IMG/VR virus record: IMGVR_UViG_3300020576_005084
Location: 1,184-65,183 of that record
Strand: one strand, 5' to 3'
Source of the DNA: a virus
Taxonomy: Duplodnaviria; Caudoviricetes
DNA length: 64,000 nt
A model generated the notes under the pieces. That model worked only from the letters and a program-made list of their open reading frames with translations, was not told the origin of the DNA and ran no database searches. Shown here in pieces: positions 11,622-63,752 of the stretch. The translations under genes and the position numbers were made by a program. Within the stretch, counting starts at the first letter, position 1. Every line of letters starts with the position of its first letter.

Positions 11622-11672
11622 CTACTTCTTCTTGCCGCCCTTTTTCATCGGGGGCATCTTGTCCTTGGCCAT
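11622..11672 (-). CDS. 16-aa basic micropeptide MAKDKMPPMKKGGKKK
   Basis: Strong RBS AAGGAG 6 nt upstream of the ATG; TAG stop; followed by a terminator. Confidence 0.6.
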   Translation of the reverse strand: MAKDKMPPMKKGGKKK

Positions 11673-11738
11673 GTGAATCTCCTTGGTTTGCAACACAGGG
11701 ACGCAGACGATGTGCTGATTCATCCGGTCTGTCCAGTA

Positions 11739-11987
11739 TCACTCGCCCTTGAGCAGCAGCTTCTTGGCCCGGTCGAGCATCCAGTTGACCCGCTCCACCG
11801 TCGCGTTGGTGTTGAGCTCCAGCAGCTGGTACTCGTCCAGCGCCAGCACCACGATCTTGCCTTTAAACCGCCCACTCAGGTGATCAAGGATCTCGTCGGC
11901 CGTCATCTCGCCGATGTCCTTGGTCTTGGGTTTGAAGCGCACGATGGTGTTGTCGCGCCCAGCCGTGTCCTTTTCGTTCTTGATCAT
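11739..11987 (-). CDS. Hypothetical protein
   Basis: 82 aa; ATGA overlap with the terL stop. Confidence 0.65.
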   Translation of the reverse strand: MIKNEKDTAGRDNTIVRFKPKTKDIGEMTADEILDHLSGRFKGKIVVLALDEYQLLELNTNATVERVNWMLDRAKKLLLKGE

Positions 11988-13519
11988 CCCAGCAGGCCCA
12001 TCCCATCGTTGCCCACGTTCTCGAACGCAGGCACGTCAGGCCCCCGGTCGACATACTCGTCGTCGATAATGCGATCGATGACCTCGCACATGGCGCCGAA
12101 CGCGTCGGCGCCGTGGCTGAATTCGTCGTGGTCCGGCGTGGCTGGCTCGTTGTTGGTCTTGCGCACGATGCGCTTGTAGCGGCGCAGGCATTCCAGCAGC
12201 CGCGCGCCGCCGGTCCAGCCGGTCTCGGCCGGGTCGCTGCGGTCGGTGCCGTCGATCATGATGCGAGGGAACGCTTCGCGCGCGGCCTTGATGCGCTGCT
12301 CTGGGCCTGTGCGCTCCATGGGCTTCTTCACCCTGCATCCCAGACCCTTGAGCCACATGTAAGGGCTCTTGCCTGTCTGCGGATTCTTGTGGTCGCCGTC
12401 GTGCGGCAACCAGTGCCAGCCCCAGCGCGAGTAGCGCATGCGCCGCAAGCGTTCGACCATCTCGTCGTAGCGCTGGAAGCTGTCCTCGAGATAGTTGATC
12501 ACCGCAGCGGTCGACGGCGTGGGCTTCTGCACCACGACCACGGTCATTGCGTCGTTCCATCCCAAGTCCCAGATGAAATGCACCTGCAGCCGCGGATCAT
12601 ACGGCACGATGAAGCAGCGCTTGTCCTGCACCATCTGCGCCATTTCCTTGGAGTAGATTGCTCCGATCACGGACGATCTGCACACGCCTTCCCAGATGTT
12701 CTCGTAATCCTCCTTGGTCTTGCTGCGCTTGGCCTCGAGCCGCTTCTTGTTGAGGTTGGCAGGGAACCACGGATTGTCGGACCAGTTCATCTTGACCACG
12801 ACCGCATCGTCCGGCGGGTTGACGACGAACATCTTCCACGTCGGGTCGGTGTCCATGCCCGGGTTGAACGTCGCCCAGATCTCGCTGTTATCCTTGCGGA
12901 TGGTGGGGATCAGGATGTCCCAGCTGTTCTGGCTCACGCTCTGGGCTTCTTCCACCCAGACGATGTCGATGCCCTCGAACGACTTGATGGAGTCGGCCGT
13001 CTGGTCGCTCAGACCAGCGAACACGATCAGCGTGCCGTTGCCGCCGCGGATCTCGGTGTCGTAGACGTCGTAGAAGCCCTCAAGCCCGAGGGCGACGATG
13101 CGATCCTTGAGCAGCTGGTGCACGGACTGCTTGATCGACTTCTGCACTTCACGCGCGCAGAGAATGCGCAGCTTCTGCGCAGCGCCCAGTGCGAGCAGCG
13201 CATCGGCGACTGCCCAGCTCTTACCGCCGCCTCGCCCGCCATAGATGATCTTGTAGGTGTGCAGCTTGAGCAGGAAGCCCAGTTTCTTCGGCAGCTGGAT
13301 GTTGACCTTGCGCGACGGTTGCGTCGGCTCGTGGTCCTCCGGCATGCGGAAGAGATAGTCGTGCTCGCCTGTCTCTGCGTCTGGGTTGAAATCGTCAGCG
13401 CTGATCTCGATGCCCGGCGCGTCGGTGCAGTCGCCCACCAGATCCATGTTCATGCGGATCATGCTGGGTTGGAACGCGGGCTCGTCATCGCCGAGCAGAT
13501 CGGCATGCCTGTGCTGCAT
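11984..13519 (-). CDS. terL: Terminase large subunit (PBSX/P22-like)
   Basis: Walker A 'IIYGGRGGGKS', 'ILCAREVQKSI', Walker B 'IVWVEEAQ', 'TFNP', nuclease 'WDLGWND' and 'HDEFSHGADAF'. Has an acidic N-terminal extension of about 70 aa. Confidence 0.95.
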   Translation of the reverse strand: MQHRHADLLGDDEPAFQPSMIRMNMDLVGDCTDAPGIEISADDFNPDAETGEHDYLFRMPEDHEPTQPSRKVNIQLPKKLGFLLKLHTYKIIYGGRGGGKSWAVADALLALGAAQKLRILCAREVQKSIKQSVHQLLKDRIVALGLEGFYDVYDTEIRGGNGTLIVFAGLSDQTADSIKSFEGIDIVWVEEAQSVSQNSWDILIPTIRKDNSEIWATFNPGMDTDPTWKMFVVNPPDDAVVVKMNWSDNPWFPANLNKKRLEAKRSKTKEDYENIWEGVCRSSVIGAIYSKEMAQMVQDKRCFIVPYDPRLQVHFIWDLGWNDAMTVVVVQKPTPSTAAVINYLEDSFQRYDEMVERLRRMRYSRWGWHWLPHDGDHKNPQTGKSPYMWLKGLGCRVKKPMERTGPEQRIKAAREAFPRIMIDGTDRSDPAETGWTGGARLLECLRRYKRIVRKTNNEPATPDHDEFSHGADAFGAMCEVIDRIIDDEYVDRGPDVPAFENVGNDGMGLLG

Positions 13520-13596
13520 CAGAGTGGTCCTGTCATCAGCAGGTACAAACCGAACACGGTGGCGACGAAAGCGATCAGCACAAGGAGCTCTTTCAT
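13519..13596 (-). CDS. 25-aa single-pass membrane peptide
   Basis: MKELLVLIAFVATVFGLYLLMTGPL; ATGA overlap upstream and TGATG overlap with the terL start. Confidence 0.55.
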   Translation of the reverse strand: MKELLVLIAFVATVFGLYLLMTGPL

Positions 13597-13907
13597 TCGA
13601 CCAGATCCATGTGCTTCGCCTTGCGTGGTGGGTACACGCGCTTCTTCGGCGGGATCGCCACTGGGATCTCCTTGGCGCGCGGCAGCTCGCGCATCAGGGC
13701 GTAGGCCTGCGTGCCCTTGCCGTATCGCGCAAGGATCTGCCGCGTCGTCATCTCGTGTGTGTTCCACTTGCCCTTGTGGCTCAAGCGGACAGCGAAGTGC
13801 TGCGCGCCCGTGCGCTCGACGCGCATGCCAGCGAGCCGCATCAGGCACACGATCTCGTACACCTGATAGTTGGTGTTGCGACAAGACGAGTAGTAGCGCT
13901 TAGGCAT
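13593..13907 (-). CDS. Hypothetical basic protein
   Basis: MPKRYYSSC...HMDLVE, 104 aa, coupled to its neighbours. Confidence 0.6.
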   Translation of the reverse strand: MPKRYYSSCRNTNYQVYEIVCLMRLAGMRVERTGAQHFAVRLSHKGKWNTHEMTTRQILARYGKGTQAYALMRELPRAKEIPVAIPPKKRVYPPRKAKHMDLVE

Positions 13908-14274
13908 TCTTCGCTTGCTGCTTGCGCGCACGGTATGCGGCCTGCTTCGCAGCGTCGTTGGGGTACAGCCGCGGGCGCCCGGCGTTGGGATTGCTGCGCT
14001 TGGGTTTGACCGGATTGCCGATGTCATCACCGACGAGGTCGTAGTTGTCCGAGGTGATGTCATGCTTGCGCTCAGGCTCTGGTGCGTCTGGCACCACGGT
14101 CGACGGGTCGACAGGCTTGAAGCGCGGACGCTCGCCAGCCTGTGGCCTCGTGTCTGCGCGCACCACGGTGTCGCCGCCCTGCGTCTCCTCGACGATCAGC
14201 ACGTCGTCGTTGACCACGTTGACCGGCTCGCGCTTCGGCGCGCTCTTCAGTTTATCCCAGAGTGCGGATCCCAT
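13900..14274 (-). CDS. Hypothetical protein with a C-terminal 'GRPRLY..DAAKQAAYRARK' basic helix
   Basis: Start MGSALW at 14274 after RBS AGGAG; 124 aa. Confidence 0.65.
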   Translation of the reverse strand: MGSALWDKLKSAPKREPVNVVNDDVLIVEETQGGDTVVRADTRPQAGERPRFKPVDPSTVVPDAPEPERKHDITSDNYDLVGDDIGNPVKPKRSNPNAGRPRLYPNDAAKQAAYRARKQQAKNA

Positions 14275-14282
14275 GGTCTCTC

Positions 14283-14651
14283 CTACAGATACTTGATGGC
14301 GAAGCCGTTGCAGATCAGATGCAACGTGTTGTCGGCAATGATCAGCAGCCACACGCTCAGCCACGGCGGCACGTCGGCTGGGTAGCCTGTCGGCGTCACT
14401 GGCCAGATGCACCCGTTCTTCGCCCACACGACGAAGCGCGCAAGGCGCCAGCGATCGATGATGAAATGGGTGATGAAGATGAAGTTCAGCGCACCCCACG
14501 TTGGCGCAAGGAGAATGAACGGCAGCGAGTAGCACAGCACATGCACCACCGCGGCCAACGTCTGTTTGGTCTTCTCCGTCGCCATCCAATGCGACTGGAG
14601 CAGATAGTCGCCGATCAGGTGCGCGAGGATCTGGTCTGCTGTGATGAACAT
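14283..14651 (-). CDS. DUF3307-like membrane protein
   Basis: MFITADQILAHLIGDYLLQ...THFIIDRW...ADNTLHL: the H..GDY..Q, HF.ID and D..LH motifs of DUF3307. Confidence 0.75.
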   Translation of the reverse strand: MFITADQILAHLIGDYLLQSHWMATEKTKQTLAAVVHVLCYSLPFILLAPTWGALNFIFITHFIIDRWRLARFVVWAKNGCIWPVTPTGYPADVPPWLSVWLLIIADNTLHLICNGFAIKYL

Positions 14652-14779
14652 CAGTACCACTCCTCGTCTTTGAGCTTTTCCTCCAACGACCACGTCGCCA
14701 GCATGACGTATAGAAAGAGCAGGCCTGCACCAACTGCAGCGGACACAGGAACGATCAGCAAAAGCCAGTACGGGTTCAT
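14651..14779 (-). CDS. Small membrane protein (42 aa)
   Basis: MNPYWLLLIVPVSAAVGAGLLFLYVMLATW...; one TM helix; overlapping start/stop. Confidence 0.5.
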   Translation of the reverse strand: MNPYWLLLIVPVSAAVGAGLLFLYVMLATWSLEEKLKDEEWY

Positions 14780-15084
14780 GGGTGTGCTCCTTGATCCGTG
14801 TGCTGACGAAAGCCCTTGTAGGCATCGTGCCTGCGCGGGTGGAAGATGTTGCCGCGTGCGCGCTTCTCGAGCACAGCGTTGATGTATGCGATCTGCTTGT
14901 GCGTCACCGGCTCTTGGTACGGTGCAATGCTCTCGGGCAGGATGACCGGCTCGCGCTGGCCTTGGATGTACACGCGCAGATCGCCAGTGAACCTTTCGCG
15001 TTCTGCATGAAGCACCTTGAACGGCACGCCGCGCCAACCGCTGATGTGATCGGAGCTGTGCTCTGTGCGATTGGTCAAGGCCAT
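14776..15084 (-). CDS. Hypothetical protein
   Basis: MALTNRTEH..., 102 aa, coupled to its neighbours. Confidence 0.55.
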   Translation of the reverse strand: MALTNRTEHSSDHISGWRGVPFKVLHAERERFTGDLRVYIQGQREPVILPESIAPYQEPVTHKQIAYINAVLEKRARGNIFHPRRHDAYKGFRQHTDQGAHP

Positions 15085-15248
15085 CAGAATGCACTCCTGA
15101 CGCGCTGCCACCACGACAGCTTTGGGGGTTGGTTGAGCTGCGCGATCGCGTGCTCGGGGCGAACAACATCTTTGTGGTGCGGGCCGTGGTTGTGCAGCAC
15201 GGCGTGCAGCTGACGCTCCAGCAATTCTCTTTCGGTGAGCTCGGTCAT
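15084..15248 (-). CDS. Hypothetical protein (54 aa)
   Basis: MTELTERELL...WWQRVRSAF; RBS AGGAG. Confidence 0.55.
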   Translation of the reverse strand: MTELTERELLERQLHAVLHNHGPHHKDVVRPEHAIAQLNQPPKLSWWQRVRSAF

Positions 15249-15346
15249 GCCATCACTCCTGTTCGAACAACACCAACATCTTTGCGCACCACAAGGCGGC
15301 AGCGCAGTTGCCACGACAACCAATCGACGATGTGCTGGTTGAACAT
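15245..15346 (-). CDS. Hypothetical 33-aa protein
   Basis: MFNQHIVDWLSWQLRCRLVVRKDVGVVRTGVMA; TGATG and ATGA overlaps on both sides. Confidence 0.4.
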   Translation of the reverse strand: MFNQHIVDWLSWQLRCRLVVRKDVGVVRTGVMA

Positions 15347-15882
15347 CAAACCAGCGTCACGTTGATCGACAGGTTCTCGCGCCGCTGGTCGTTGTCCTTC
15401 TCGAATCCGCCCAGATGCTTCATGGCCATGTCGATCGCCTGCAGCTTGTTGAAGGGCTGAAAGTCATTGGGCCCCATGTGCGAGATGGCCGCTGCGGTCT
15501 TGGCATCCAGCTCTGTGAAAAGTTTTCGCGTGCCGTCTGGGTGATAGAGCTTGCGGCGATCGAACGTCGCGATCGCGTGGATCTGCGCAAGCATCTCGTC
15601 CATGTCGAGCCCGGCACGACGCAACGATGTGCCTGCGAGCTCGATGATCCGTGCACGGATCGCAGGACGACGCAGCAGGAACGGTGCGTTTGATGGAGCG
15701 TATCCAGCTGCGATCGCAGCTTGCCGAGCATTTCGCTGCAGCTCGACGTACTTTATGCAAAACAATTGCTCGGCAATCGTCAAGGTTGTTACCGGCAAAA
15801 CATTTTGTGACGGCGGGAGAAGCTCCTGTTCAGGAGTTTCGTCACCAAGCAGGTCGGAATTGTCGCGCCGCGAATCAACCAT
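15346..15882 (-). CDS. terS: Terminase small subunit
   Basis: 'EQLFCIKYV...NARQAAIAAGYA......LLRRPAI' HTH and 'K..A.DM..KHLG.F..D', both typical of TerS. Confidence 0.85.
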   Translation of the reverse strand: MVDSRRDNSDLLGDETPEQELLPPSQNVLPVTTLTIAEQLFCIKYVELQRNARQAAIAAGYAPSNAPFLLRRPAIRARIIELAGTSLRRAGLDMDEMLAQIHAIATFDRRKLYHPDGTRKLFTELDAKTAAAISHMGPNDFQPFNKLQAIDMAMKHLGGFEKDNDQRRENLSINVTLV

Positions 15883-15895
15883 GAGTTACGATTTA

Positions 15896-16078
15896 TCAGT
15901 GAAGGGCGATCTCTGTCCAATACAGCTCGCCAATGCGCCACAGGAAACGCTGCTCGATGCCGGTGACCGGGTAGCGCGTGACCACATACACCCAGTCGTC
16001 ACAGTGCAGCTGCACCTCGACCGGGGCATAGGTCGGCAGCGCCGGTAGCACATGCTCCGGGGCCTGCAGGATCGGCAT
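15896..16078 (-). CDS. Hypothetical protein
   Basis: MPILQAP..., 60 aa. Confidence 0.45.
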   Translation of the reverse strand: MPILQAPEHVLPALPTYAPVEVQLHCDDWVYVVTRYPVTGIEQRFLWRIGELYWTEIALH

Positions 16079-45294: not shown

Positions 45295-47090
45295 TGGGCC
45301 ACCTGCTGTGTCTGGCTTTCGTCGTTCCAGTATTCGTCATCCCAGATCTCATAGGACTTCTGCCCCTCGCGCTTCGCGCGCTTTGGGCCGTAGGTGCTGG
45401 CACCGAAGCCGAGGCCGTCGGCGATCATCACGGCCAAAAACGGCGCAGCGTTAGGATCCTGCAGCGCTTCGTAGCCGGTGCTGGCGCCGATCGGTGTTAC
45501 CAAGCCAAGAGCGGTGTTGGTCCACGTCACCTTGTTACCGGCCATGTCGGTGCCGTTTGCCAGCGCGATCATCTTGCCGAGCAGCGGCGATGCCTTGCCT
45601 TCGATATAATCCTCTATGACGTCGATACGGGTGCGAGATCCGAACTTGCCGGTGCCCAACTCCGAGACGCGGCCGGACGTCGAGCTCTTGCTGGAGCCCA
45701 TGATCAGGCGCGCGGCCAGCGTCACCATGGAGCCCATGCCGCCGGATATGTCGAACCGGGTGTCGCCGATTTTTATCTTTCCGAAGTTTGCCGAGCGCGG
45801 ATCCCACTCGACACTGTCAGGATCCAGCATGCCCGCGATGGCGTAAACCAAGGCCATGGTACCGACGATGCGCGCCAGATTCATCGCAGCCTGACGGCGC
45901 ACGAAGTTGCGCGCGGGGCCCTTCTCGATGCCGAAGCCCAGCGTGTGCCCCGTGAGTGTGTCCCAGTTGGACTTCAGGAAGCGCAACGAGAAGAACGCGG
46001 CGTTGACCCAGTCTGCGGGCCTGTCGCCAACCAAGGCTTTCACGCTGCCGCGGCCGGTCATGGAGTTGATCAGATCCCCGATGCCTTCTGCCGCACCACC
46101 GGGCGCGGACAAGTCGACGCCAGCGGCCTCGGCTTTAGGAATCAGGCGATCGGCGATGTCGGCGCGGAAGCGCAGCGAGCCACCAACAAAAGCCGATTCC
46201 GACATTTTGTAGACGCGTCCAAAAACCGGAATTTTCTCCGGCAAGGCGGTGGGGAAAGCCTCTTCGAACTGCTGCCCGAGGGCGAGCTTCATGTTGTCGT
46301 ATTTGCCCATCATCGCGTTGGGCCGGGAGTAGATGTCGGCTTTGAGTGCAGAGATTGGATCGCCACCAACAGCCACACTGGCCATGTCGCTCCACGATTT
46401 CACAAAACCCTTGGCCCAGATATCGGGATGGTTGATCAGTGTCCTGAGACCCTGACGGCCGAAGAAGCTGTTGTCGAGCGATGCGACGACACCCTTGACG
46501 GAGTTGGCGGCGTCGAGAAGCGCGCGGCCGTTGGGTTGCGTCAGCCACTCCTTGAAGTTCTTGGCGTTTGCATCGCGCATCAGCACACCAACATAGTCCT
46601 GATATGCGACGAGCGCGGTGCCGTAGGCCAGCCGATCGGTCTCGCTGGTCCACTCCTGTGTATCCGCGTTCCACTTTTCCTTGAGCGCGGAGATGTTCTT
46701 GGCGCCGGTCGAGATGGTCTTGGCCTCGTCGAAGGTCACGGACGCACCGAACTTCTTGGCGGCCAGATCCGCAAGGAAGGCCTTCTCTTCGGCGGGCTCG
46801 AGCACGTTCTCCAGCTTCTTCACCTTCTCGATGAAGTCCTTGCGGGTCTTCGGCGACAGACCGGACATGTCCGTGGCCCACCGCTGCAGGCCCGCGATCT
46901 GGTCCTTCAGGAGCAGCTTGCTTTCGAACGCGGCGTTCACACCCTCGGCGTTGGCCGGTCCTACGATCTTGGCGAAGTAGGCACGGCGATCGGCGCTGGT
47001 CATGTCCATCAGCTTCCCGGGATCGATCGCACCGGACTTCAGTGCGGCGAGAAACTTCTGAGCATCAGGTTTCGGAATGCAATACGACAT
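45291..47090 (-). CDS. Internal virion (ejected) protein
   Basis: 599 aa, helical; C-terminal 'VEWDPRS.NFGKIKIGDTR.D' motif seen at the end of podovirus ejection proteins. Confidence 0.65.
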   Translation of the reverse strand: MSYCIPKPDAQKFLAALKSGAIDPGKLMDMTSADRRAYFAKIVGPANAEGVNAAFESKLLLKDQIAGLQRWATDMSGLSPKTRKDFIEKVKKLENVLEPAEEKAFLADLAAKKFGASVTFDEAKTISTGAKNISALKEKWNADTQEWTSETDRLAYGTALVAYQDYVGVLMRDANAKNFKEWLTQPNGRALLDAANSVKGVVASLDNSFFGRQGLRTLINHPDIWAKGFVKSWSDMASVAVGGDPISALKADIYSRPNAMMGKYDNMKLALGQQFEEAFPTALPEKIPVFGRVYKMSESAFVGGSLRFRADIADRLIPKAEAAGVDLSAPGGAAEGIGDLINSMTGRGSVKALVGDRPADWVNAAFFSLRFLKSNWDTLTGHTLGFGIEKGPARNFVRRQAAMNLARIVGTMALVYAIAGMLDPDSVEWDPRSANFGKIKIGDTRFDISGGMGSMVTLAARLIMGSSKSSTSGRVSELGTGKFGSRTRIDVIEDYIEGKASPLLGKMIALANGTDMAGNKVTWTNTALGLVTPIGASTGYEALQDPNAAPFLAVMIADGLGFGASTYGPKRAKREGQKSYEIWDDEYWNDESQTQQVAQ

Positions 47091-47560
47091 TAGAATTGCG
47101 CCCTCAGATATGCGACCAGCTTTTCAAGCAGCTTTGCGTTGTCATCCGCCAAACCAAGAATAGTATTGCAGTGCGAACATATCCAACCACGAAAAAGACC
47201 AGTCAAGTGGCAGTGATCGAAACATATCCTTCGTGCCTGCCCACACACTTCGCAATTTTTGGGTTTTGGTCGGCCTGCTTCTTTTAGCTGGCGCGCTGCA
47301 TATTTTTCCACCTGCCTTCTGCGTTTCTCTTCGTAAGGAATTTTACCTTTTTTCTTGTTGGCCTCTGACAGCTTCCTTCTGTGCTCCGCAGTTTTAACTC
47401 TGCCTTTTCCTGCAGCTGAAATTTTTGCACGGTGTTCTGGCGTTTTTACAACCATACTTAGTTTTGCTCGGTGCTCCGCAGAGTGCTTGCGGCCGGTTAA
47501 AGAAGCACGCATTTTAGCTTTCGCTTCTTCCGACAGCTTATGTCCTTTCACAAAAACCAC
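47090..47560 (-). mobile_element. Free-standing homing endonuclease: NUMOD3 repeats plus an endonuclease VII domain
   Basis: Repeats 'KHSAEHRAKLS', 'KTPEHRAKIS', 'KTAEHRRKLSEA'; 'CEVCG...CFDHCH.TG.FRGW.C..CN..LG'; AT-rich relative to the genome. Confidence 0.85.
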
Positions 47561-47563
47561 AGG

Positions 47564-50500
47564 CTACACCTTGCAAATAAGAGACGCGATGAAATCGTTC
47601 CAGTTGGCCTTCTTGGTCGACTTGGCTGTCGCCCGCGACACACGAAGACCACGCTCTACCGTTTCATTGATCTTGGCCTCCGGGTCAATGCCACGGGCTT
47701 TACCACGGGCTTCGCGGGCCAGACGGATCTGCCGCATGGCCTCGGCCGGGGTATCCTTGAGCCGGTTACGCCACGCGGCCGTCTGCTGGCCTTGGGTGGT
47801 GGCGAGCTCGGATATGGGCGACCGGCTCAGGCGTTCTTGCAGCGCGTAGTCGTTATTGGCGATGGCGGCTTTTTCCAGCTCGATGAACACGAACTGGGGG
47901 TGGACACCCGTCAGCGATTTTGCCTCGAGCATGGCGATTGCCAGTGCCCGCTCAGGATCCTCGGCCACCAGACGTGCGGCGCGATCCAGTTGGGGCTTCT
48001 CCTCCCCGACATCATAGGCTTCGCCGTTTATCGCACGGAAACGGGTCTCACCAGTGCCGTCGATCGGCTGCTGCGCCCGGCGACGGGGCGCGCGATCGGG
48101 GATCGGGGGCAGATCCACAACCGTAGTGCTCGAGGGGCCTGCGTTGTTGCCAAACATGGCGGCGTAAGTGGGATCCTGCCGGATCATCTTCTCACGCAGC
48201 GAAGACGGCACGCGCGGAGAGAAGGACGCGCTTTCTACCGTCTGGAATTTTGACGGGTCGAACGGGCCCCACTTCGCAGCGTTGGGACCGAGCACTTCAC
48301 CCTGCCCATCGGCGAACTGGCTGATAGCGTCCTGCTTCAGCCGTTCGCTGACCGCGTTGGCCTCCTCGGCCGTCAGCGGACGATCGAGCTGCATGGCGAC
48401 TGCGGGCGCACCGGACTTGCCGTAAATGCGACGGGCACGCTCTGCAATGACGCGGGCGCCGGTATCCTCGACAACGGCGCGGGCCTCGTCGACGGTGAAA
48501 GACTGGCCACCGTCCAGACGATCGAGGCGCAGGTTGATGGTCGCGCCTTCCGGCGCGGCGGGATGCAGATAGTCCAGAAGGCGCTCCTGCGCCTCGGCGG
48601 CTTCGTCCCACGAGGGGTACACCGGGGCGCGCTGCAGCTCGGCCGACATCTCCTTGGGGTCGAGCACCATGAGCACAACGTCCGGCTTGCCGCCGTTGAA
48701 CTTCTTGTACAGATCCTTGTCCCAGCCTTCAGGCGCATACTCGTCGTTCCACGACGTGCGTGCGGCCTCGACGAAGCCGAAGCGGTGATAGAACTTCGGA
48801 AGGATGGTGTCGAAGGCGTCAAGCTTCACACCACCAGCGGCGACGGCGACTTCCATCATCGCGCTGCCGCTCTTGTCGGTGGAGAACACCGACACAATGT
48901 CGCCGTCAGGCTTCACCGCCACGCCGCTCTTGCCGTTGTCGGCGAGCATCAGGCGGAAGTTCTTGTAGTCCTCGACCGGGTACACGGCGACGGCCGCGCC
49001 GAAGCGGTTGGCGCTCTTCGCAGCGGTGATCAGGTCGGCGAAGCGGCGGGCGTTGGAATCCGTCTGCTCGAGCTCGAGCACGCGGGCGGGAATGTTGACG
49101 CCTGCAGCGGTGTAGCTTTCACGCAGATCCTTGCCAGCGTTCCACTCCGCGGCATAGGTGACACCGAGCGACTTTAGAAGCCGCCCGCGGCCGCCATCTC
49201 TTCCGCCTCCTCGCGTGTAAGACCGGGATGATCCCGCATCGCCTGCGCGATCGGATCGGAGCTGTCGAGTTGTGTCGAGCCTTGGAGAGAACTGAGCGGC
49301 AGCATACGGCTGGGCGTCTGCCCCGGCTCCGAGGGGTCCACCGGCAAAGTCTTCACCCGGGACAGGCCCCGGAAGAGCTCCCTCTCGGTTTCTGTCGGCG
49401 AAGCGCCGGGCGACGTCGTCGAGACGTGCGCGGTTGACTTCAGGTCTTTCATACCAAGCCTCGTTGCCGCTTGCGGTGACCTTGAATTTCGAGGGCACTA
49501 CGCCGTTGGCGGGTTTTTTGATCTCTTCCAGAAACGCACGGAAGGCCGGGACGCTGAATTCGTAGCGCCCGCCCGAGGGGGTGTCATAGCGGAAAAAGGG
49601 CCGGTTGTCATCATCCCGGCCGTACCGGGCGCCATACTCGTAGGCCCCGTATTCACCCTGTTTTGCGGTCACGTCGGCGATCGCCGACCGGTTGGACTTG
49701 GAGATCAGGGCATCGTCCAGAATGGCCCCCAGCGTGCCGTGGGAGGCTTCCTGCTGGGAGTAGGCGACCCAGCTCTCCCAGTGGTAGCGCCCCACGGAGG
49801 CGTCCTGCGGGCGCCCAGCGGCGGCGTAAATGGACCCGATCTTGGCCTGCAGGCCCCGCTCGATCGCCTCGTAAGCCAGCAGGCCGCGGACGCCGTAGGT
49901 CAGGTTGGCCAGCGGGGTGCCGGTGATCACCTTGCCCTCGGCGTCCTTCTGGCCGTCGTAGATGTTGGTGTCCTTGAACCGGCCGTCGTCCCACAGCTGG
50001 CGCGTCTGGACGCGGTCGATGACCATGACGTCGCTGTGACCGGCAACCAGCAGGGTGAAGGAGACCACCTTGTTGTCGATGCCGACGCCTTCGCCGAACT
50101 TCATGAACTCGCGGCGGATCTGCTGGCCGGTCATGTTCGGATCGCTGAACATCTCGTGCAGGTGCTGCATCCGGGTTTTGCCGGTCTCATCCTTCAGCGC
50201 CATGTTCACGAGGAAGTTGTTGCCGAACGCGTTGAGATTGTGCGTGGCACCGGCACCGGGCTGGCCCGAGCCCTTGGGCGCCACAGAGCGGGCCCACGCC
50301 TCGTACTCGGGCATGTCGTCCTTGGTGAAGTTGCCGTCGGCCGCGCGTTGGATCCACGGCGCGGCGCCATCAAAGGCGTCGATGAAGAGGCTTTCCTGAA
50401 CATATGGTGACACGCCACGCGAGAGGAACGACCAGAGGAAAAGCTTGCCGGTTGTGACCGGCGTCAGCTGGCCGCTTTCATAGGCGGCACGGAATTTCGC

Positions 50501-53500
50501 GGCCTGCTCAAAACCGTGGGTCGCATCTTCAATCTGGCCCGCGGACAGGGCAGACACCTTGTTGGTGGCCTCCGCGCTGTTGAGATCGCGGATGAAGGCA
50601 TACGGCGGGATCGGCACGTCGCTGCCCCCAAGGGCATACGCCATCATCTCCGACCACGCCTCCGGGGACTTGGTCGGGTTCTTGAACTTCGACAGGACGT
50701 CGTCGAGATTTTCGAGCTGCTTGCCAGCGTTGCCATTGGTGGTCGTCTGGGTCAGCAGCGTCTGCGGCTCGCCCTTGTTGTTGAGCGCGAACTTCGGCGG
50801 ATTGAGAACGCGGACACGCAGCGACGGTGCGAAGCCGTGCACGTTCTTGTCGGCGACATCCTTGCCGGGCTTGGAGATCTTGATCTTGGGGCTGAACTTC
50901 GGCTGGCCACGCATGACTTCAGCGCGCATTTGCGGCGTGATGTCGAGCGAGTGGACGGGTGTGTTGCCTGTGTTTTTCGCCTTGTTTTCAGGATCGTTGA
51001 TGTATTCCTGTGTCAGAACACGGCGCTCGGCCTGCGATGTGTTGTTCCACGTCTCGTCCGACATGTCGTGGTATTGCGCGACATCTTCGGGTTGAGCTGC
51101 GGCATCGCGCAAGGTCGTGCCCGCTGTCGGCACCACGCCGTCTTCGACCTTGGCGGCCCACTTCTTGACGTACTTGTCGACAAACGCGGGCAGGATCTTG
51201 TCGTAGAACCCGCGCATGCCGGAGCCGCCGACCTTCAGGCCGTCGCCATCGACGCGACCTTCGCTCTTTTTCGACTGCACGATCCCGTCGGCGATGTCCT
51301 TGCCGACAACGTCAGGGATCTCTTCTGCCGGAATCGTCTTTCCGTAAATCACGTCACCGTCGTGATCGTAGACATCGAGATGATACTTGCCGGTCGCGGT
51401 CTTGTACCAGTCAATGTATTCAACCTTCTGGCTCAGGTCATAGCGATCGGCGTTGGTGTCGCCGGTATCCCACGTCACACGGTCATAGCCGTTCTCGACG
51501 GCATAGCGCAGGGCCCGCTTGAAGGCGAGCTCGTGCCATGTGGTCTTGAACGGGGCGTCTGGCACGGCGCTGCGGGCCTTGCGCAAGGCTTCGACAGCGT
51601 CGTTGTGCTTCTTGATAGCCGCCAGCATCTCAGGATCGCTGTCGATCGCGTTTACGCGACTGAGAGCCTCCATGGCTTCAGGGCTGGCGTCGTCATAGAT
51701 TTCACGTTTGCTGGTGTACTTGCCGCCCGTTGCTTCGGCGAACTTCTTCTCGCGCAAAGCATACATCTCGTCGGTGGCTTTTTTGCTGGCTTCAACCAGC
51801 GCAGGCACCTTGGAAGCATCGCCGTATCCGTTCTTGCGGCCGATCTGGTGCCAGTCGCTCTGGATCTCGGCGATGTGCAGGATCTTCTCGCCGTTCGGCC
51901 CGGTGCGGGTATCGAAACGGATGTGGGCAAGGACATTGGATTCGGCCCAATGCTTTCCTTTGAAATTTCCAGCAGCAGATCCGATCGGAGAATTCTTCGC
52001 TGCGCGGGCAATAGCATCCTGCGCGGTGCGTGCGGATTCCCGCGGCACACCAAGAATCCAACGCTTGTTTGCATCGCGCACTTCCCAAATCGGGCCACTG
52101 GCAGGATCGCCTTCAGCCTCTTTCGCTGTCCACCCTGTGGTGTCGCGGGGAATCGCAGGAAGCGTGAGCAGGAGCTCGTGGTAGTCCTTGCCGCCGGGCA
52201 GCGAGTATTCGGCGAACTTCGTCGGGTTGTCGCTGTTCGCAATGCGCTCCAGCTCGACCATGCGATCGTAAGCCGCCTGCGGCATGTCTTCCATTTGCGC
52301 GCGGTACTGCGCGCGGAGTTCGTCGTATTCCGCCTCTTCCGCAGGGCCGATGACGCCGCCCTTCATCACTTCTTCGATCTTTACCGAGCCGACTTCCAGC
52401 TGCTCGAGCACCTCGGCCTTGGTCACCGGGCGCGTCTGGGCACCCAGCCACTTGTCGATGCCAGTGGTCTTGATCTCCTCGGCCTTGATGCCGGGCATGT
52501 TCTTGATGGTCGCCAGCCACTGGCCGGGAGGTGCCTTGTCGAACTTCACGCTGTCGACGGCACGCTCCAGCGCAGAGAAGAACACCGGGCCTTTCTCTTC
52601 GACCTTGGGGCTGAACTGCGGCTTGCCGCCAGTATCCTGCGCCATCTGGTTGGCGACAAAACGGTCGGCGTCGGTCGGGTTGCCGGTCTCGGCTTCGCGC
52701 GGCGTGGGCTTGCCGATCCGCACAGGCTCGCCGGAGGCGGGCTTCTTGGCGGCGGGCTCTTCGGTCTTTTCCTTCGTGACCTCGGCAGCCTTGGCCATGC
52801 GCGCATGTGCTTCGACCATCTTGGCCCGCACAACGGCCATGTCCTCGTTGTCGGTCTTGGGGTTGACCCGGTCCTCGATCGCGGCGCGAATCTTCGCGAG
52901 ACGATCCCGAGCGGCCTTGGTCAGGTACTTCTCACCGCCGCGCACCTTGGCGACGATCGCCTTCTCTTCGGCGCGCAGGTGGGCGACTTGGGGGCTCTTC
53001 TCCGCATCGCTGCGGCGTTTGGTGTCCAGCTCGCCCAGCCAGCGCTTGTAGACCTCGGCCTGCTGCTTGGCCTCGGCATAGCCTTCGCGCGGCTTGGGGC
53101 CAGCGCGTGTGGGGTTGGCCTCCTTGCCGACCATCGCCTCGGTGACGACGTTCTCGGCGGTCGGCGCCTTGTCGGACAGGCCTTCCGTCTCGCCGATCTT
53201 GGCGGCGTGCATCTTCGCGATGGTGTCGTGGATCTGGTCGAGGTTGGTCACCCACTTGTCGGTCTCGAACATGCGGGCAGGCTTGAAGAACTTCTGCAGC
53301 GTGTTGAAGCTCTCGCGCAGGCTGGTCATCAGCTTGCCCAGAACGTCGGTGGCGACGTTCTTGCCGTAGCGTTCCTCGACGGCACCAATGACCTTCTCGA
53401 CGAAGCCGGTGAACCGCGGCGCATCGCCGATCATGTCCTTGCCAAGCTCGTTGTACAGGTGGTCCAGCACGGCGTCAGCATGCGCGGCCTGCCCTTCCGG

Positions 53501-55462
53501 TGTGGAGGGGAAAGAAGCGCGGCTGGGCGCAGTTTCGGAGTGCAGCTCGAGGGCGAGGCGAGCATCGCTGGTCAGGCCTTCAGCCAGCTGCTGCTTCAGC
53601 ATCTGGTTCAGGTTGCTGCCGTCCGGCAGCTTCACACCTTCGAAGGTGTGGCCGAGCTCGTGCATCGATATCTGCGCAACAGCACGCGTCGGGTTGCTGG
53701 AGATGAAGACGGTGTTCGGCTGGCGCTCGTCAACCACACCGTCGAAGCCCTTTTCTCCGATGTCTTTAACAAAGACGACATCCACACCGTACTTCGCAAA
53801 ATGTTCGCGAGCTGCATTGGCGAATTCCGGCGTGACGGCACCAGCATCCGGTTTTGCCGGATCCGGTTCCCATGCTTCCAGCGGCTCGGCGATGGCATCA
53901 CGGTTGTTGGCGTACAGCTGGTCGACAGCGGCCTGCCGCTTCGACCGCAGGTTGGGCAGATCCTGATCGAGAGACTTCTTGGTCTCGTCGATCATCTGGT
54001 CGAGCGATGCACGAGGGGCGCCAGTCGGCGAAGCGACGGCCGCCTCGGCCGCAGCGGCGATCGCAGTGTCGACATCCGGCGCAGCGAGGACGCTGTCGAC
54101 CGAGACCTTCTGCTGCGGTGTGATGGTGTCGGCCGGGGGAGCCGCGGTCGTTGTATCGATCAGAGGCGTGCCGGTGTTGGGCGGGGGCGGCGCAGCGGCA
54201 TCGGGCGGTGGCGGTGCGGCCGTATCCGGTGCAGCCGTGGGCTCCTTGCCCGGGGCGAAGTCACCCAGACCACCGGACAACTGGTTGTCGCGGTGCTGGA
54301 TGTAGGCATCGACCTTGCTGTTGTCGGCCGGAGCTTCAGCAGCAGGTGTCAGGGCTTCTGTAATCCCTTTTGCGCCGCCACCCATAATGCCGCCGGTAAG
54401 GCCACCAATGATGGCGCTCAGCGCGGCACTCTTGGCGGTCTCGGCAGTGAAAAACGGTTTGTCGGATGCCGCGCTGACAGCAGCGCTGGAAATAAGATCC
54501 TGCGCACCTTCTGTGCCCGCTTCAATTACACCAGACTCCCCGGTCTCGGCCAATATACGCTTCACAACACCACGGACAGCTTCGGCTTTCGCTTCCTTCG
54601 TACCAAGGCCGCCAACCCAACGTGTTGGGTTGATGGTATCGAGCGCGGTGATCGGGATGGCGGCGCCGAAAGCCCATTTCGCGGCCTGTTCTTTCGGAAC
54701 ACCTGCGGCTTTCAACTGGCCGTAGACGTCGCCGTAATTCAAAACATATGAGGGGGCGGCGGCGCCAAAGGCCGCGCCGCCCGGCCCCGCGACGGCTCCA
54801 CCACCGAGAGCACCAACAATGGATGCAGCAGAAGAACCAATCGCGCCACCAACACCTTCACCAACCCACGTCAGTGTTTTTCCAAGATCGAAATTCTTTA
54901 GGCTGGGTTCCTCGGCGCGAAGGGCAAAATCCTTCGGCGACTTGTTCGCAAGCTCGAGCACTTGTTTGGATGCATCGCGCAACATCTCGTCGATGTGTGG
55001 TGCCTTGTCCTGCATCTTCCGCATGGACTCGGTGACCGCACCCATTCCCGTCTCGGAATCGACACGATCGGTGTTGTTTGGTACGAGGAACGAAAACCCC
55101 TCAAGTGTTTCAGCTGTTGCCCGCGGATTGTCGCCCATTAGTTTTGTCACCAAACCACGGGTCAGCGCCCAGTGGTCAGATGGCTTCTCTGGTGCGTCCG
55201 AGGGGGCTTCACCCTTTATACTGTTCAATACGTCGTTATTGGGCAGGCCGCTTTTCACCGGGCCGGTATCACGCATCATGGAGTTGATCAGGCCACCCTT
55301 TAAAGGGTCCGGGGCCTTGGCCAAGAAATCAACAATCTCGCTATCGTCATAACCAGACTTGCGCGCAGCCGCAGTGTCGAACTCCTTCATCGGTGCGAGG
55401 AAGTCGGCAATCTCGCTGTCGGAATAACCAGCCTTGCGTGCGCCTGCTACATCAAACGGCAT
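47564..55462 (-). CDS. Large polyvalent internal virion protein (2632 aa)
   Basis: N-terminal 'MPFDV.GARKAGYSD.EIA.FL'; HELGH motif at aa 601; FSP[KR] linkers starting near aa 949, 1522, 2057 and 2413; HhH-GPD-like and GNAT-like segments. Confidence 0.85.
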   Translation of the reverse strand: MPFDVAGARKAGYSDSEIADFLAPMKEFDTAAARKSGYDDSEIVDFLAKAPDPLKGGLINSMMRDTGPVKSGLPNNDVLNSIKGEAPSDAPEKPSDHWALTRGLVTKLMGDNPRATAETLEGFSFLVPNNTDRVDSETGMGAVTESMRKMQDKAPHIDEMLRDASKQVLELANKSPKDFALRAEEPSLKNFDLGKTLTWVGEGVGGAIGSSAASIVGALGGGAVAGPGGAAFGAAAPSYVLNYGDVYGQLKAAGVPKEQAAKWAFGAAIPITALDTINPTRWVGGLGTKEAKAEAVRGVVKRILAETGESGVIEAGTEGAQDLISSAAVSAASDKPFFTAETAKSAALSAIIGGLTGGIMGGGAKGITEALTPAAEAPADNSKVDAYIQHRDNQLSGGLGDFAPGKEPTAAPDTAAPPPPDAAAPPPPNTGTPLIDTTTAAPPADTITPQQKVSVDSVLAAPDVDTAIAAAAEAAVASPTGAPRASLDQMIDETKKSLDQDLPNLRSKRQAAVDQLYANNRDAIAEPLEAWEPDPAKPDAGAVTPEFANAAREHFAKYGVDVVFVKDIGEKGFDGVVDERQPNTVFISSNPTRAVAQISMHELGHTFEGVKLPDGSNLNQMLKQQLAEGLTSDARLALELHSETAPSRASFPSTPEGQAAHADAVLDHLYNELGKDMIGDAPRFTGFVEKVIGAVEERYGKNVATDVLGKLMTSLRESFNTLQKFFKPARMFETDKWVTNLDQIHDTIAKMHAAKIGETEGLSDKAPTAENVVTEAMVGKEANPTRAGPKPREGYAEAKQQAEVYKRWLGELDTKRRSDAEKSPQVAHLRAEEKAIVAKVRGGEKYLTKAARDRLAKIRAAIEDRVNPKTDNEDMAVVRAKMVEAHARMAKAAEVTKEKTEEPAAKKPASGEPVRIGKPTPREAETGNPTDADRFVANQMAQDTGGKPQFSPKVEEKGPVFFSALERAVDSVKFDKAPPGQWLATIKNMPGIKAEEIKTTGIDKWLGAQTRPVTKAEVLEQLEVGSVKIEEVMKGGVIGPAEEAEYDELRAQYRAQMEDMPQAAYDRMVELERIANSDNPTKFAEYSLPGGKDYHELLLTLPAIPRDTTGWTAKEAEGDPASGPIWEVRDANKRWILGVPRESARTAQDAIARAAKNSPIGSAAGNFKGKHWAESNVLAHIRFDTRTGPNGEKILHIAEIQSDWHQIGRKNGYGDASKVPALVEASKKATDEMYALREKKFAEATGGKYTSKREIYDDASPEAMEALSRVNAIDSDPEMLAAIKKHNDAVEALRKARSAVPDAPFKTTWHELAFKRALRYAVENGYDRVTWDTGDTNADRYDLSQKVEYIDWYKTATGKYHLDVYDHDGDVIYGKTIPAEEIPDVVGKDIADGIVQSKKSEGRVDGDGLKVGGSGMRGFYDKILPAFVDKYVKKWAAKVEDGVVPTAGTTLRDAAAQPEDVAQYHDMSDETWNNTSQAERRVLTQEYINDPENKAKNTGNTPVHSLDITPQMRAEVMRGQPKFSPKIKISKPGKDVADKNVHGFAPSLRVRVLNPPKFALNNKGEPQTLLTQTTTNGNAGKQLENLDDVLSKFKNPTKSPEAWSEMMAYALGGSDVPIPPYAFIRDLNSAEATNKVSALSAGQIEDATHGFEQAAKFRAAYESGQLTPVTTGKLFLWSFLSRGVSPYVQESLFIDAFDGAAPWIQRAADGNFTKDDMPEYEAWARSVAPKGSGQPGAGATHNLNAFGNNFLVNMALKDETGKTRMQHLHEMFSDPNMTGQQIRREFMKFGEGVGIDNKVVSFTLLVAGHSDVMVIDRVQTRQLWDDGRFKDTNIYDGQKDAEGKVITGTPLANLTYGVRGLLAYEAIERGLQAKIGSIYAAAGRPQDASVGRYHWESWVAYSQQEASHGTLGAILDDALISKSNRSAIADVTAKQGEYGAYEYGARYGRDDDNRPFFRYDTPSGGRYEFSVPAFRAFLEEIKKPANGVVPSKFKVTASGNEAWYERPEVNRARLDDVARRFADRNREGALPGPVPGEDFAGGPLGAGADAQPYAAAQFSPRLDTTRQLRSDRAGDAGSSRSYTRGGGRDGGRGRLLKSLGVTYAAEWNAGKDLRESYTAAGVNIPARVLELEQTDSNARRFADLITAAKSANRFGAAVAVYPVEDYKNFRLMLADNGKSGVAVKPDGDIVSVFSTDKSGSAMMEVAVAAGGVKLDAFDTILPKFYHRFGFVEAARTSWNDEYAPEGWDKDLYKKFNGGKPDVVLMVLDPKEMSAELQRAPVYPSWDEAAEAQERLLDYLHPAAPEGATINLRLDRLDGGQSFTVDEARAVVEDTGARVIAERARRIYGKSGAPAVAMQLDRPLTAEEANAVSERLKQDAISQFADGQGEVLGPNAAKWGPFDPSKFQTVESASFSPRVPSSLREKMIRQDPTYAAMFGNNAGPSSTTVVDLPPIPDRAPRRRAQQPIDGTGETRFRAINGEAYDVGEEKPQLDRAARLVAEDPERALAIAMLEAKSLTGVHPQFVFIELEKAAIANNDYALQERLSRSPISELATTQGQQTAAWRNRLKDTPAEAMRQIRLAREARGKARGIDPEAKINETVERGLRVSRATAKSTKKANWNDFIASLICKV

Positions 55463-61125: not shown

Positions 61126-61629
61126 TTAGACCCCGACCTCGAAAAAGTTTCCTTTGCTCAGGTTCGCGGTCGCTCTGAGGATCTGCAGATTTTCTTCAAC
61201 ATGAAGGCCACAAACCGTTTTGCCTTTCAACGGAATTTTATGGTCGACATGGTGCGGCACCCCCGTTTCTTTCGTCAGGCGCCGGGCTTCTGCGTAAACA
61301 GCACGAATAGCGGGCCTGTTGGCAAAAGGTGGAATTTTTGTTCCGCGTTGTGTGACGCGTCGTTCGTTGGCGACAGGGGTGTTAGCTTCTAGGTTTTTAT
61401 CACGCCAAATTTTTGCTTTGGCGTTCAGTTTTTTACGGTTTTTCTTTCCCCACACCGAGCGCATCGCGCTGTGTTTCTCTGGGTTGCATTTCTGCCATTC
61501 TTTCAGGCGCACTAGGCAGTGTTCTTTGCACAGCGTGCTTTTAGTCTTCTCACGGATATGACTCGCATGAAAAAACTTCAACGGCAAAAGTTTGTTGCAC
61601 TTTTTACAAAGAACGAGCCGGGGGATCAT
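61126..61629 (-). mobile_element. Free-standing HNH homing endonuclease
   Basis: Start [11 protein letters not shown] at 61629 (ATGA overlap); '[24 protein letters not shown]...NLSKGN'; AT-rich. Confidence 0.88.
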
Positions 61630-63752
61630 ACGCGCAAGCCCCTTCTCATGCTGTAATGGTATATTATCGAGTTCAGGTTGAAACTCTCGATGTAGTTGGT
61701 GCCACACGTTATGGCGACCTGTACGTTCTCCGCGGTCCCGGTCATGTCGACGTCTGTGGGAAGGAGGGTCTGCCCGTCCCAGATGAAATTGTCCCAGTAG
61801 AAAGCATCCCAGAAAGGAATGGCCGTCAGGTTTGACGAATAATCGACCGGCGACGGCTGTCCGATCATGTCTGTGCCATAGCCGAGCTTGTAGCCGAAAG
61901 CGATCGCGGCGTAGAAGCTGCTCTGGATCTCGATGCTGGCGGCGCGGAAGCGCTTCAGGATACGTGGCGACTTGATGGCGTTCCACGCCAGCATTGCGCG
62001 AGCAGCGATCGGGCCTCCATCAAACGAAGGGCCTACATCCAACTGATACACGTACCCAAGCTCGTCGGTGGATCCGAAATAAGACACCTCGCCGCCGGAA
62101 AGGGCGTTGTTGGTGTCGATGCAGTTCACCGGGTTCGGGAAATATACCGGGCAAGCACCCAGATACTGGTCATTGACCGACGTGACATAGAGGCCGTATC
62201 CGTCGCTGAAGAACAGGCGGTACTGGCTCTTGGCGTGCGACAACGCGCTTGCGCTGGTCTTGCTCGCTTCTGACTGAATGAACGGAAAGATGTTCTTGGT
62301 CAACACAGAGGAGTCGAAGTTGCCGAAGTTCAGCGATGCTTTCAGAGACACCACACCCATGTTGTCAAGCATGAAAATGTCGAAGAAGTTCTGCGCGGTG
62401 TAAGGCAGCGCCGACACACCACTGTTGTAGGTGATCAGGTTGAACGTCGTCGGATCTGTGCCGTACAGGATGTTCGCGGCGTTTTGCGTAAAGACCGCCA
62501 GCGTGGCCGTGGTCGTGGATCCCACCGAGCTGAGCAGTCCGGTGATGTCGTCGCCGACCGCGATTTCACCACCACCGTCGGTCGTCAGGTATTTGAACGG
62601 TGTTCCGATGCCGGAATGGATCAACGAGCTCTCGAACGACAGGAACAACATGTTCTTGTGGATCGCGATGAATTTCGGGCGATCGTCGGCCAGACCAGTC
62701 GTGATCGGCGCGTAGGTTTCGCCGTCGAATTCGAAGGCCTTGTTGGCGTTATCGCAGCCGTAGATCCGGCGCGTGCTGGACGAGCCGGAAAAGTTGCCCT
62801 TGTCGAACTGGTACTTGCCACCCGGCTGGATGACAATAGCAGTCTCCGCACCAGTGAGATTGAGCGTGGCGCCCGAGGGGGCGCAAGTCGCCGCACCGGC
62901 TGTAAAAGGGCCGCCGACAATGTTGGTGATGACCAGCTGGCCAGCAAGCGTGCTGGCTCCGAACGTACCGGACTGAACCTGCACACGCATGATGGTGGCG
63001 GTTACGCCACCCTTGGTGATGGTGTCGCCGTCCTGCGGTTCTGCGATCGCACCCCCAGTGAACTGGATGGTGTTGAACAGAGGCACATTCACCCAGCCTG
63101 CGGTCGAGGCCTTGTAGATGTCGCAGGCCGTGCCTGCTGCGTTGTCTCGGAAGGCGTAGACATTGTCCCGATTGGAGAAGGTCATCGCCACAACGCCGCG
63201 GATGGCGCCTGATCCCGGCACCGGGCCGATGTCGGCACGATAGTTTTCATACGCCAGCGCGAGATACTGCGCGTTGAGCAGCGACGTGATAGGTGAGGTG
63301 GCGTTTACCGCGGTGCCGATCAGGATGACGCCAACATAGACACCATGGCTGGTATCGAAGGTGCCGGTGACCTTGGTCACCACGATGTAAGGTGCTGCGC
63401 CCGTCACGATCGCGATCACAACACCAGTAGCGCCGCTGACCAGCTGGTTGACGGTATCCCCGGGGGCAGGAGCATTGGTGAAGGCGTCAAGATTGATGAC
63501 GGTGTATGTGCCGTTGTGCGGCGCGGGCTGGCCGCTGAAGCGCTCGTAGCCTTGGATGCGGGCGTACCCGCCAGACTGGCTGCATTCGAAATTGACGACA
63601 TCACGCAAGGCGCCGGGCTGCAGCGACAGGCTAGGCGTGGTGAGATCCAGCCCGCCCGGGAACATCTGGCCGTTGCCAGTTACGCCACCACCCAGACGGG
63701 TGATCTCATACTTGACCGGCACTGCAGCGAAAGGAGCCTTACCCCGTGCCAT
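61626..63752 (-). CDS. Tail nozzle / head-closure protein (P22 gp10-like beta-propeller)
   Basis: 708 aa; 'GGLDLTTP', 'N.EC...GGY.RI.GYERF'; beta-rich; follows the adaptor gene. Confidence 0.7.

Follow-up and report, generated by a model that had tools for sequence, protein, structure and literature searches.

The DNA stretch analysed here (the window; 64,000 nucleotides) covers nearly all of a virus record that is 65,183 bp long and bears direct terminal repeats (IMG/VR record IMGVR_UViG_3300020576_005084, positions 1,184 to 65,183). On its minus strand, which carries every window feature given with coordinates below, a 2632-aa open reading frame (ORF; 47564-55462) encodes a giant multi-cassette protein of the polyvalent type. 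One cassette of this protein, residues 1527 to 2056 (530 residues; 49295-50884), is a self-contained, putative enzyme unit that is conserved as a single block in 243 homologues. With very high confidence, this unit has an Ogg2-like HhH-GPD fold with an intact catalytic Lys/Asp pair. The function that appears most probable, at roughly 0.6, is that of a bifunctional DNA glycosylase/apurinic-apyrimidinic (AP) lyase that is carried as cargo in the virion and acts as the DNA enters, targeting a base recognised otherwise than 8-oxoguanine (8-oxoG) is by Ogg2.

Fold and catalytic motif of the cassette

An AlphaFold2 model of residues 1556-2031, built on an alignment of 49 homologues, exhibits a predicted local distance difference test score (pLDDT) of 92.3 and a predicted template modelling score (pTM) of 0.92. 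A single-sequence model reached a pLDDT of 37.6 and was not used. The predicted fold is the two-lobed, all-α fold of the HhH-GPD superfamily, in which the active site is located between a barrel of helices and a lobe built from the N and C termini. In an exhaustive comparison with 48,161 representative PDB chains using VIA-align, the model matches Tm1821 (3n0u) with a Z score of 15.7 and a root-mean-square deviation (rmsd) of 3.1 Å over 207 of 209 residues. The top 22 rows, from Z 15.7 down to 6.1, are all HhH-GPD enzymes and include hOGG1, EndoIII-3, QNG1, CacOgg, MagIII, Mag1, ROS1, MutY, MUTYH, NTHL1, AlkA, EndoIII, MIG and AGOG; OGG1, EndoIII, QNG1, MagIII and MutY score between Z 6 and 10.7. 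A second structural comparison places the four solved Ogg2 structures first (3knt_D, Z 15.8; 3n0u_A, 15.7; 3fhg, 15.2; 3fhf, 14.8). These alignments cover 200-208 of 206-214 residues with an rmsd of 2.9-3.2 Å (2.9 Å over 203 of 206 residues for 3knt_D), and the next family, represented by the OGG1/EndoIII rows, follows at Z 10.6. Foldseek against the PDB returns Tm1821, MjOgg, MagIII, SsOgg and EndoIII-3 at the top, and its first nine matches are all HhH-GPD proteins; the E-values are weak (0.04-0.3) and the target-normalised TM-scores are 0.68-0.69. A low-quality ESM Atlas model of one homologue (P0009) has its best match in a PF22175 cluster (TM-score 0.73 by target, 211 residues), followed by a PF00730 cluster. 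Phage base transferases of the aGPT-Pplase/PUGT type, which have an HhH-glycosylase-like fold, are not favoured, with a Z score of 4.1 only.

The earlier note, made from the letters of the DNA, had read the block as an HhH-GPD glycosylase-like domain and had named a structural model lacking that fold as the check on this reading. That check was run: the fold is present, with the Ogg2 enzymes leading by about 5 Z units. The glycosylase-fold reading is therefore supported, by the HhH-GPD proteins that fill the top 22 rows and by the essentially invariant Lys/Asp pair that aligns with that of MjOgg. The extent of the domain is narrower than was proposed. The four Ogg2 structures align with model residues 69-353, which limits the HhH-GPD core to residues 1624-1908 (49739-50593); the remainder of the cassette consists of family-specific N- and C-terminal extensions.

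The helix-hairpin-helix, the Gly-containing loop and the catalytic-Asp segment lie together in a 36-residue motif, FGEGVGIDNKVVSFTLLVAGHSDVMVIDRVQTRQLW (residues 1789-1824; 49991-50098). Lys1798 (50069-50071), the predicted Schiff-base nucleophile, stands 18 residues before Asp1816 (50015-50017), the predicted catalytic aspartate, exactly as the earlier note had stated for both the motif and the spacing, and as in the K129/D147 pair of MjOgg. Bifunctional HhH-GPD glycosylase/lyases such as EndoIII, OGG1, Ogg2 and AGOG carry this Lys where the second HhH helix begins, approximately 18-19 residues before the Asp (32 in AGOG).

The register of the motif is consistent in several alignments. A family profile built from 18 members was searched with HMMER against all 177,635 PDB sequences, and the two best sequences are MjOgg (E 0.11 and 0.54). 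In this alignment, which covers MjOgg residues 99-157, the family G-I-D-N-K falls on G-I-G-Y-K129 and V-L-D-R falls on I-I-D147-R, so that Lys1798 and Asp1816 are matched with MjOgg K129 and D147. The string GVGIDNK-VVSFTLLVAG-HSDVMVID is aligned to MjOgg, and its G1794, I1795, G1808, D1811 and D1816 are at least 97% conserved in the family. The K1798/K129 register is confirmed by the 3knt chain, a K129Q mutant, which has Gln in the K1798 column. The 59-residue MjOgg segment of the profile alignment was also used to collect genuine Ogg2 proteins, all of which belong to PF22175, and 24 of them were aligned. Comparison of the family with this alignment by hhalign recovers an identical set of 59 columns, in which the Lys and the Asp again each face their counterparts (P 0.004); this supports the residue register, though not homology by itself. 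The consensus of the 24 proteins bears out the archaeal/Thermotoga Ogg pattern that the earlier note had given. A phmmer search of the cassette against PDB sequences yields no match. The marginal sequence signal and the independent, strong structural match agree, and the case for the Ogg2-like assignment rests on that agreement.

Departures from Ogg2 and conservation in the family

Ogg2 distinguishes 8-oxoG from G by the carboxylate of a strictly conserved C-terminal lysine, which senses N7-H, and Ogg2 truncated of this lysine loses 8-oxoG excision and retains AP-lyase activity (PMC3397491). The C-terminal K206 is invariant among the 24 aligned Ogg2 proteins. All four solved Ogg2 chains align up to their residue 207, and the C-terminal Lys207 position falls on model residue 353, which is the internal His1908 of the cassette (49739-49741). 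This His is invariant and forms part of a Q-E-[AV]-x-H motif, after which the chain runs on for approximately 120 well-predicted residues. The free C-terminal lysine that senses 8-oxoG is thus absent from the cassette in the structural alignment with the four Ogg2 chains. Because this sensor is absent, 8-oxoG cannot be assumed as the substrate. The pocket differs from that of Ogg2, and the excised base is therefore probably not read as Ogg2 reads 8-oxoG. The substrates proposed in the earlier note consequently find no support: the 8-oxoG sensor is missing, and nothing in the analysis bears on ADP-ribosylated or methylated bases.

Further differences are distributed over the whole unit. Approximately 75 residues are inserted inside the core, including an invariant WDDGRF..N.YDG segment after the Asp helix. 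The last core helix carries the motif GRYHWESWV (residues 1891-1899; 49766-49792), which is at least 97% identical in the 243 homologues, with H1894, W1895 and W1898 invariant; from the order of the helices in the model, it is a candidate wall of the base pocket. Upstream of the core, the N-terminal extension (residues 1527-1623, 97 residues; 50594-50884) is mostly helical, family-specific and conserved within the family, and its modelled part (model residues 1-68) lies outside the Ogg2-aligned range. Downstream, the C-terminal extension (residues 1909-2030; 49373-49738) is predicted to comprise a small β-sheet and helices (model residues 354-475, pLDDT about 90-97) and has G1936, G1944 and Y1947 invariant. 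It is likewise family-specific, and the whole-model searches returned no structural match over it, the extension not having been searched alone.

The family is large. A HMMER search of 1.84 billion representative proteins retrieves at least 399 clusters (50% identity) at E<=1e-3 and 299 at E<=1e-30. Nearly all of the matching proteins are 1000-3700 residues long (the median parent protein of the homologues has 2588), and the position of the match within them varies. A word-indexed search among proteins of 1447-4606 residues gives 422 matches, none with a functional name for the cassette region; they are called "hypothetical protein" and, in one case, "GNAT", owing to another cassette. IMG/VR contains 26 related loci, and the two members in BFVD are both labelled "uncharacterized protein [uncultured Caudovirales phage]". 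Across 185,579 species genomes, the domain is present on five contigs only, each from a metagenome-assembled genome; isolate genomes and prophages in that set showed no trace of it. No relative was found by tblastn among 50,697 GenBank phage records.

Conservation was counted in 243 aligned domains with identities down to 35%. Position 1798 is Lys in 242 of them, with a gap in the other one, and position 1816 is Asp in 241. At least 97% identity is observed at 36 positions. In addition to the Lys/Asp pair, the invariant polar residues are E1690, N1742, H1769, R1783, R1784, N1797, D1811, R1817, Q1819, N1833, D1836, E1865, E1868, H1894, Q1904 and H1908. Selection was estimated against the protein of a sister phage, P0152. 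The two cores share 96% amino-acid identity at a synonymous divergence (dS) of 0.46, and the ratio of nonsynonymous to synonymous divergence (dN/dS) is 0.045. The N-terminal extension has a dN/dS of 0.088, and the other cassettes of the same pair range from 0.09 to 0.45, making the core the most constrained part of the giant protein.

The giant protein and its probable delivery

The giant protein is assigned to the polyvalent class primarily through its relatives. A Pfam scan of 16 homologous giant proteins detects ART-PolyVal in 7/16, LPD38 in 5/16 and LPD22 in 4/16, together with LPD37, RadC, Zeta_toxin and AcrF31; precomputed domain lists of homologues add DdrB-ParB, LPD23 and GNAT. ART-PolyVal and LPD-type domains are hallmarks of phage-type polyvalent proteins, for which delivery together with the DNA has been predicted (Iyer et al., 2017; PMC5512222). 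The window protein shares with this class its large size and effector domains that are shuffled among relatives. It has itself no Pfam match and hence no polyvalent hallmark, just a HExxH string being visible upstream of the cassette. The cassette matches none of the LPD models in Pfam, a set that leaves aside those LPDs of Iyer et al. that are outside Pfam. In the main text of that study, glycosylases go unmentioned and HhH appears once only, as a fusion partner of RadC (PMC5512222). The literature search found no description of polyvalent or ejected phage proteins with a domain of the HhH-GPD or Ogg2-like kind.

The cassette moves as a unit and occupies different places within proteins of 1400-3700 residues. 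The other segments of the window protein are common to merely 4-37 of 242 homologues. ART-PolyVal directly follows the cassette in one homologue and directly precedes it in another, LPD22 lies far off on the N-terminal side, and the search for a fixed partner domain among the homologues identified no obligatory partner. The sister protein P0152 (3208 residues; L032:4635-14261, plus strand) has the same cassette order and an additional ART-PolyVal insert of approximately 490 residues (1027-1519), located between the HExxH cassette and the next cassette. Values of dS between the two sister proteins range from 0.2 to 1.5 by cassette, and this spread suggests that the giant gene may be a recombinational mosaic.

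The cassettes flanking the glycosylase-like unit differ in how regularly they accompany it. The upstream cassette (residues 950-1526; 50885-52613) contains the string HIAEIQSDWHQ and has no family match; it is found in 14/242 homologues, before the glycosylase cassette in four and after it in ten. Directly downstream, a GNAT-like cassette (residues 2057-2300; 48563-49291) has a phrog_2563 match at residues 2160-2237 and follows the glycosylase cassette in 37/242 homologues, on the C-terminal side every time. Short linkers mark the borders. The FSPK linker (residues 1523-1526; 50885-50896) is located immediately upstream of the cassette and is retained at the same border in the sister proteins P0152, P0003, P0006 and P0153, and an FSPR linker (residues 2058-2061; 49280-49291) is located downstream. 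Four FSP[KR] strings stand at cassette borders in total (residues 950, 1523, 2058 and 2414), and the border motif is kept in the closest homologues. More distant lineages exhibit other recurrent linkers upstream of the cassette, YSR[GS] and NRGTFDP..PNI[LT][FYN][SQ]. The FSP[KR] linkers are candidate sites of proteolytic processing. Near the N terminus of the giant protein, at about residues 200-370 (54400-54860), the translation shows an extended hydrophobic run rich in Gly and Ala, which includes GGAIGSSAASIVGALGGGAVAGPGGAAFGAAAP, and after it a linker rich in Pro and Ala. The Gly/Ala-rich run may be the part of an ejection protein that inserts into a membrane.

The genomic context is that of a late gene. 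The phage encodes TerL, an SU10-type portal, a GP4-type fiber, a family-A DNA polymerase, GapR and a Dam methylase; among the Pfam hits of 56 ORFs there is no base-hypermodification gene, only the Dam-type methylase. The giant gene lies in one late same-strand block with a P22-type head-closure-like gene upstream. Over 95% of its length, this upstream protein (708 residues; 61626-63752) shares 29-31% identity with Vibrio podophage proteins annotated as "head-closure (Hc3)" or "phage stabilization"; in some of these records that gene is called "amidase", probably an annotation error. Downstream of the same head-closure gene, Vibrio phage 1.232.O, an annotated podophage, encodes a giant polyvalent-type protein of about 3290 residues. 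By analogy with the polyvalent-protein class and the podophage synteny, and from the position in a late-gene block, the protein is likely delivered at injection.

A small gene separates the giant gene from the adjacent gene for a 599-residue protein. It encodes a 156-residue HNH/Endonuclease VII protein with a NUMOD3 motif (47090-47560) and looks like a mobile homing-endonuclease insertion. In the sister phage L032, no gene separates the giant gene (4635-14261) from the one that follows (14258-16054).

Proposed activity and comparison with known systems

The following course of action is proposed. The protein would most likely be packed in the capsid, perhaps with the cassette freed at the FSP[KR] linkers, and would be ejected with the DNA, so that the enzyme is active before phage gene expression. 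The helix-hairpin-helix would grip the DNA backbone, and the target base would flip out into the pocket formed between both helical lobes. Asp1816 would aid the cleavage of the N-glycosidic bond, and the attack of Lys1798 on C1' would give a Schiff base, resolved by β-elimination, as expected of a bifunctional glycosylase/AP lyase. The internal His1908, with Q1904, H1894, W1895 and W1898 near it, may stand in for the carboxylate of the C-terminal lysine of Ogg2. We infer in this scheme the activity, DNA as the substrate, the packaging and ejection, and the target. Action on the incoming phage genome, at lesions, defence-made adducts or abasic sites, is slightly favoured over an attack on host DNA because no self-protecting hypermodification genes are present among the Pfam hits. 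For the same list of hits, the proposal that the phage replaces a base of its own DNA so that the enzyme attacks normal host bases is unsupported.

A number of observations weigh against the proposed activity. The glycosylase block has no match in Pfam, PHROGs, NCBIfam or PADLOC, either as the cassette or within the whole protein. PF00730 (HhH-GPD) gives no match at E<=1 in hmmscan or at E<=10 in a six-frame search of the genome, a search that recovered its own family in all 14 control genomes. PF22175 (Ogg-HhH; threshold 27 bits) likewise gives no six-frame match at E<=10, although this family was found in control genomes, and one of the 49 homologues touches it at E 0.025. By curated sequence criteria, the block is in no named family. 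The hhalign probability is merely 8.5% over the 59 columns, and the homology thus depends mostly on predicted structure. In the hairpin, the second Gly is replaced by Asp (GIDNK, compared with GIGYK in Ogg2), and the family has Asp or Asn at this position. Stand-alone DNA glycosylases are usually basic, and the cassette is mildly acidic, with an isoelectric point (pI) of 6.0 and a family median of 5.9. No base-excision repair partner, AP endonuclease or ligase, is listed among the Pfam domains of the homologues. Finally, QNG1, which acts on a mononucleotide, scores Z 9.8, and a K199C mutant in the PDB suggests that it has a functional Lys; the Lys and Asp alone are therefore no proof of a DNA substrate.

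This last point opens an alternative in which the substrate of the cassette is a free nucleotide or nucleoside: it would be an N-glycosidase resembling QNG1/DUF2419 and might, early in infection, destroy for example an immune signal of the nucleotide type or some other small molecule. The QNG1 match has the longest aligned length (234-254 residues) and extends into the N-terminal extension, to model residue 29. The acidic pI fits such an enzyme, the pocket residues are unlike those of all DNA glycosylases compared, and polyvalent proteins are predicted to carry signal-degrading enzymes (PMC7824862). However, Ogg2 matches much better than QNG1 (Z 15.8 against 9.8, rmsd 2.9 against 5.1 Å), and the segment from the helix-hairpin-helix through the loop to the Asp is Ogg2-like in sequence. 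We know of no N-glycosidase for a signalling nucleotide, and this alternative is considered quite improbable. It is also unlikely that the fold is retained without base excision, either as a module that binds DNA or holds genome ends in the capsid or during ejection, or as a pure AP/deoxyribose-phosphate lyase. HhH motifs bind DNA irrespective of sequence, and the cassette is devoid of the lysine sensor whose removal deprives Ogg2 of 8-oxoG excision and spares its AP-lyase activity (PMC3397491). Nevertheless, the many invariant polar residues and the dN/dS of 0.045 are more in keeping with a defined active site and a pocket for a substrate than with a protein that binds the backbone, and the acidity that suits a nucleotide enzyme speaks against a general DNA clamp.

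The place of action can be questioned in the same manner. The giant protein could carry a real enzyme that is not injected and instead works late in the infection, in the cytoplasm, or solely at assembly, for instance by checking the quality of the DNA ahead of packaging, and the lack of a Pfam polyvalent hallmark in the window protein is compatible with this. Close homologues, including the sister with 96% core identity, do carry ART-PolyVal and LPD domains, however; the gene is located in the late same-strand block by neck-like genes, where an annotated podophage has its giant polyvalent protein; and the translation shows the hydrophobic N-terminal region rich in Gly and Ala. A role without injection is accordingly regarded as very unlikely. 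A virion-borne glycosylase/AP lyase remains the preferred reading, within which a more specific role may tentatively be envisaged: counter-defence by base excision, in which the new pocket would serve, before phage genes are expressed, either to clear the incoming genome of a defence-installed adduct or lesion or to cripple the host chromosome by removing a modified base specific to the host. This more specific role is itself rather doubtful; if true, it would be a founding example and would mirror, on the phage side, the Dag and Brig glycosylases of the host.

Several consequences follow for the wider field. It has recently emerged that hosts use DNA glycosylases as weapons against phages whose DNA is modified, and a phage-encoded, probably virion-delivered glycosylase would represent the same chemistry from the opposite side. 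Because the family has many members and no name in public annotation, the biochemical characterisation of a single member would provide annotation for hundreds of phage proteins; purifying selection on the family is strong. Its Ogg2 scaffold, in which the base pocket is rebuilt, is of interest for specificity in the HhH-GPD superfamily and is possibly a source of glycosylases for new modified bases.

Compared with the known Ogg2 enzymes (MjOgg, 3fhf/3knt; SsOgg, 3fhg; Tm1821, 3n0u; PF22175), the cassette shares the two-lobed fold, on which nearly the whole Ogg2 chain can be superposed, and the motif G-I-x-x-K...S.F/L...G..D[VI].[VI][IL]DR with its 18-residue Lys/Asp spacing. The identity is just 13-14%, and no match reaches the Pfam threshold. 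Ogg2 is a stand-alone repair enzyme of approximately 200-215 residues, whereas the 530-residue cassette is embedded in a phage protein of 2632 residues, adds a 97-residue N-terminal and an approximately 120-residue C-terminal extension to the Ogg2 core, and has an acidic pI. The cassette is thus a new Ogg2-like branch of the HhH-GPD superfamily and not a canonical Ogg2. The queuosine-5'-monophosphate N-glycosidase QNG1/DUF2419 (7ugk, 7u07) has an HhH-GPD-like fold with extra helices and aligns over 234-254 residues at Z 9.1-9.8; it is a clearly weaker match than Ogg2, with an rmsd of about 5 Å, and its substrate is a mononucleotide.

With the polyvalent proteins of Iyer et al. (2017), the parent protein has in common its giant size and its shuffled cassettes, as well as homologues that carry ART-PolyVal, LPD22, LPD38, DdrB-ParB, GNAT and RadC; a HExxH string is visible upstream of the cassette. 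The bacterial defence glycosylases Dag and Brig (bioRxiv 10.1101/2025.10.29.685425; PMC11078745) are also divergent, formerly unannotated and recruited to the conflict between phage and host, and the Dag proteins are members of the HhH superfamily (10.1101/2025.10.29.685425). Dag and Brig, however, are host proteins that excise modified phage bases, whereas the cassette is phage-encoded and probably virion-carried, and no PADLOC model matches it. The logic of a glycosylase that travels in a virus particle and acts on the viral genome at entry has a counterpart in the host UNG2 packaged in HIV-1 virions (10.1101/2025.10.29.685425). This analogy is one of logic only: UNG2 is a host enzyme of another fold that is carried by a retrovirus, and it has no evolutionary relation to the cassette.

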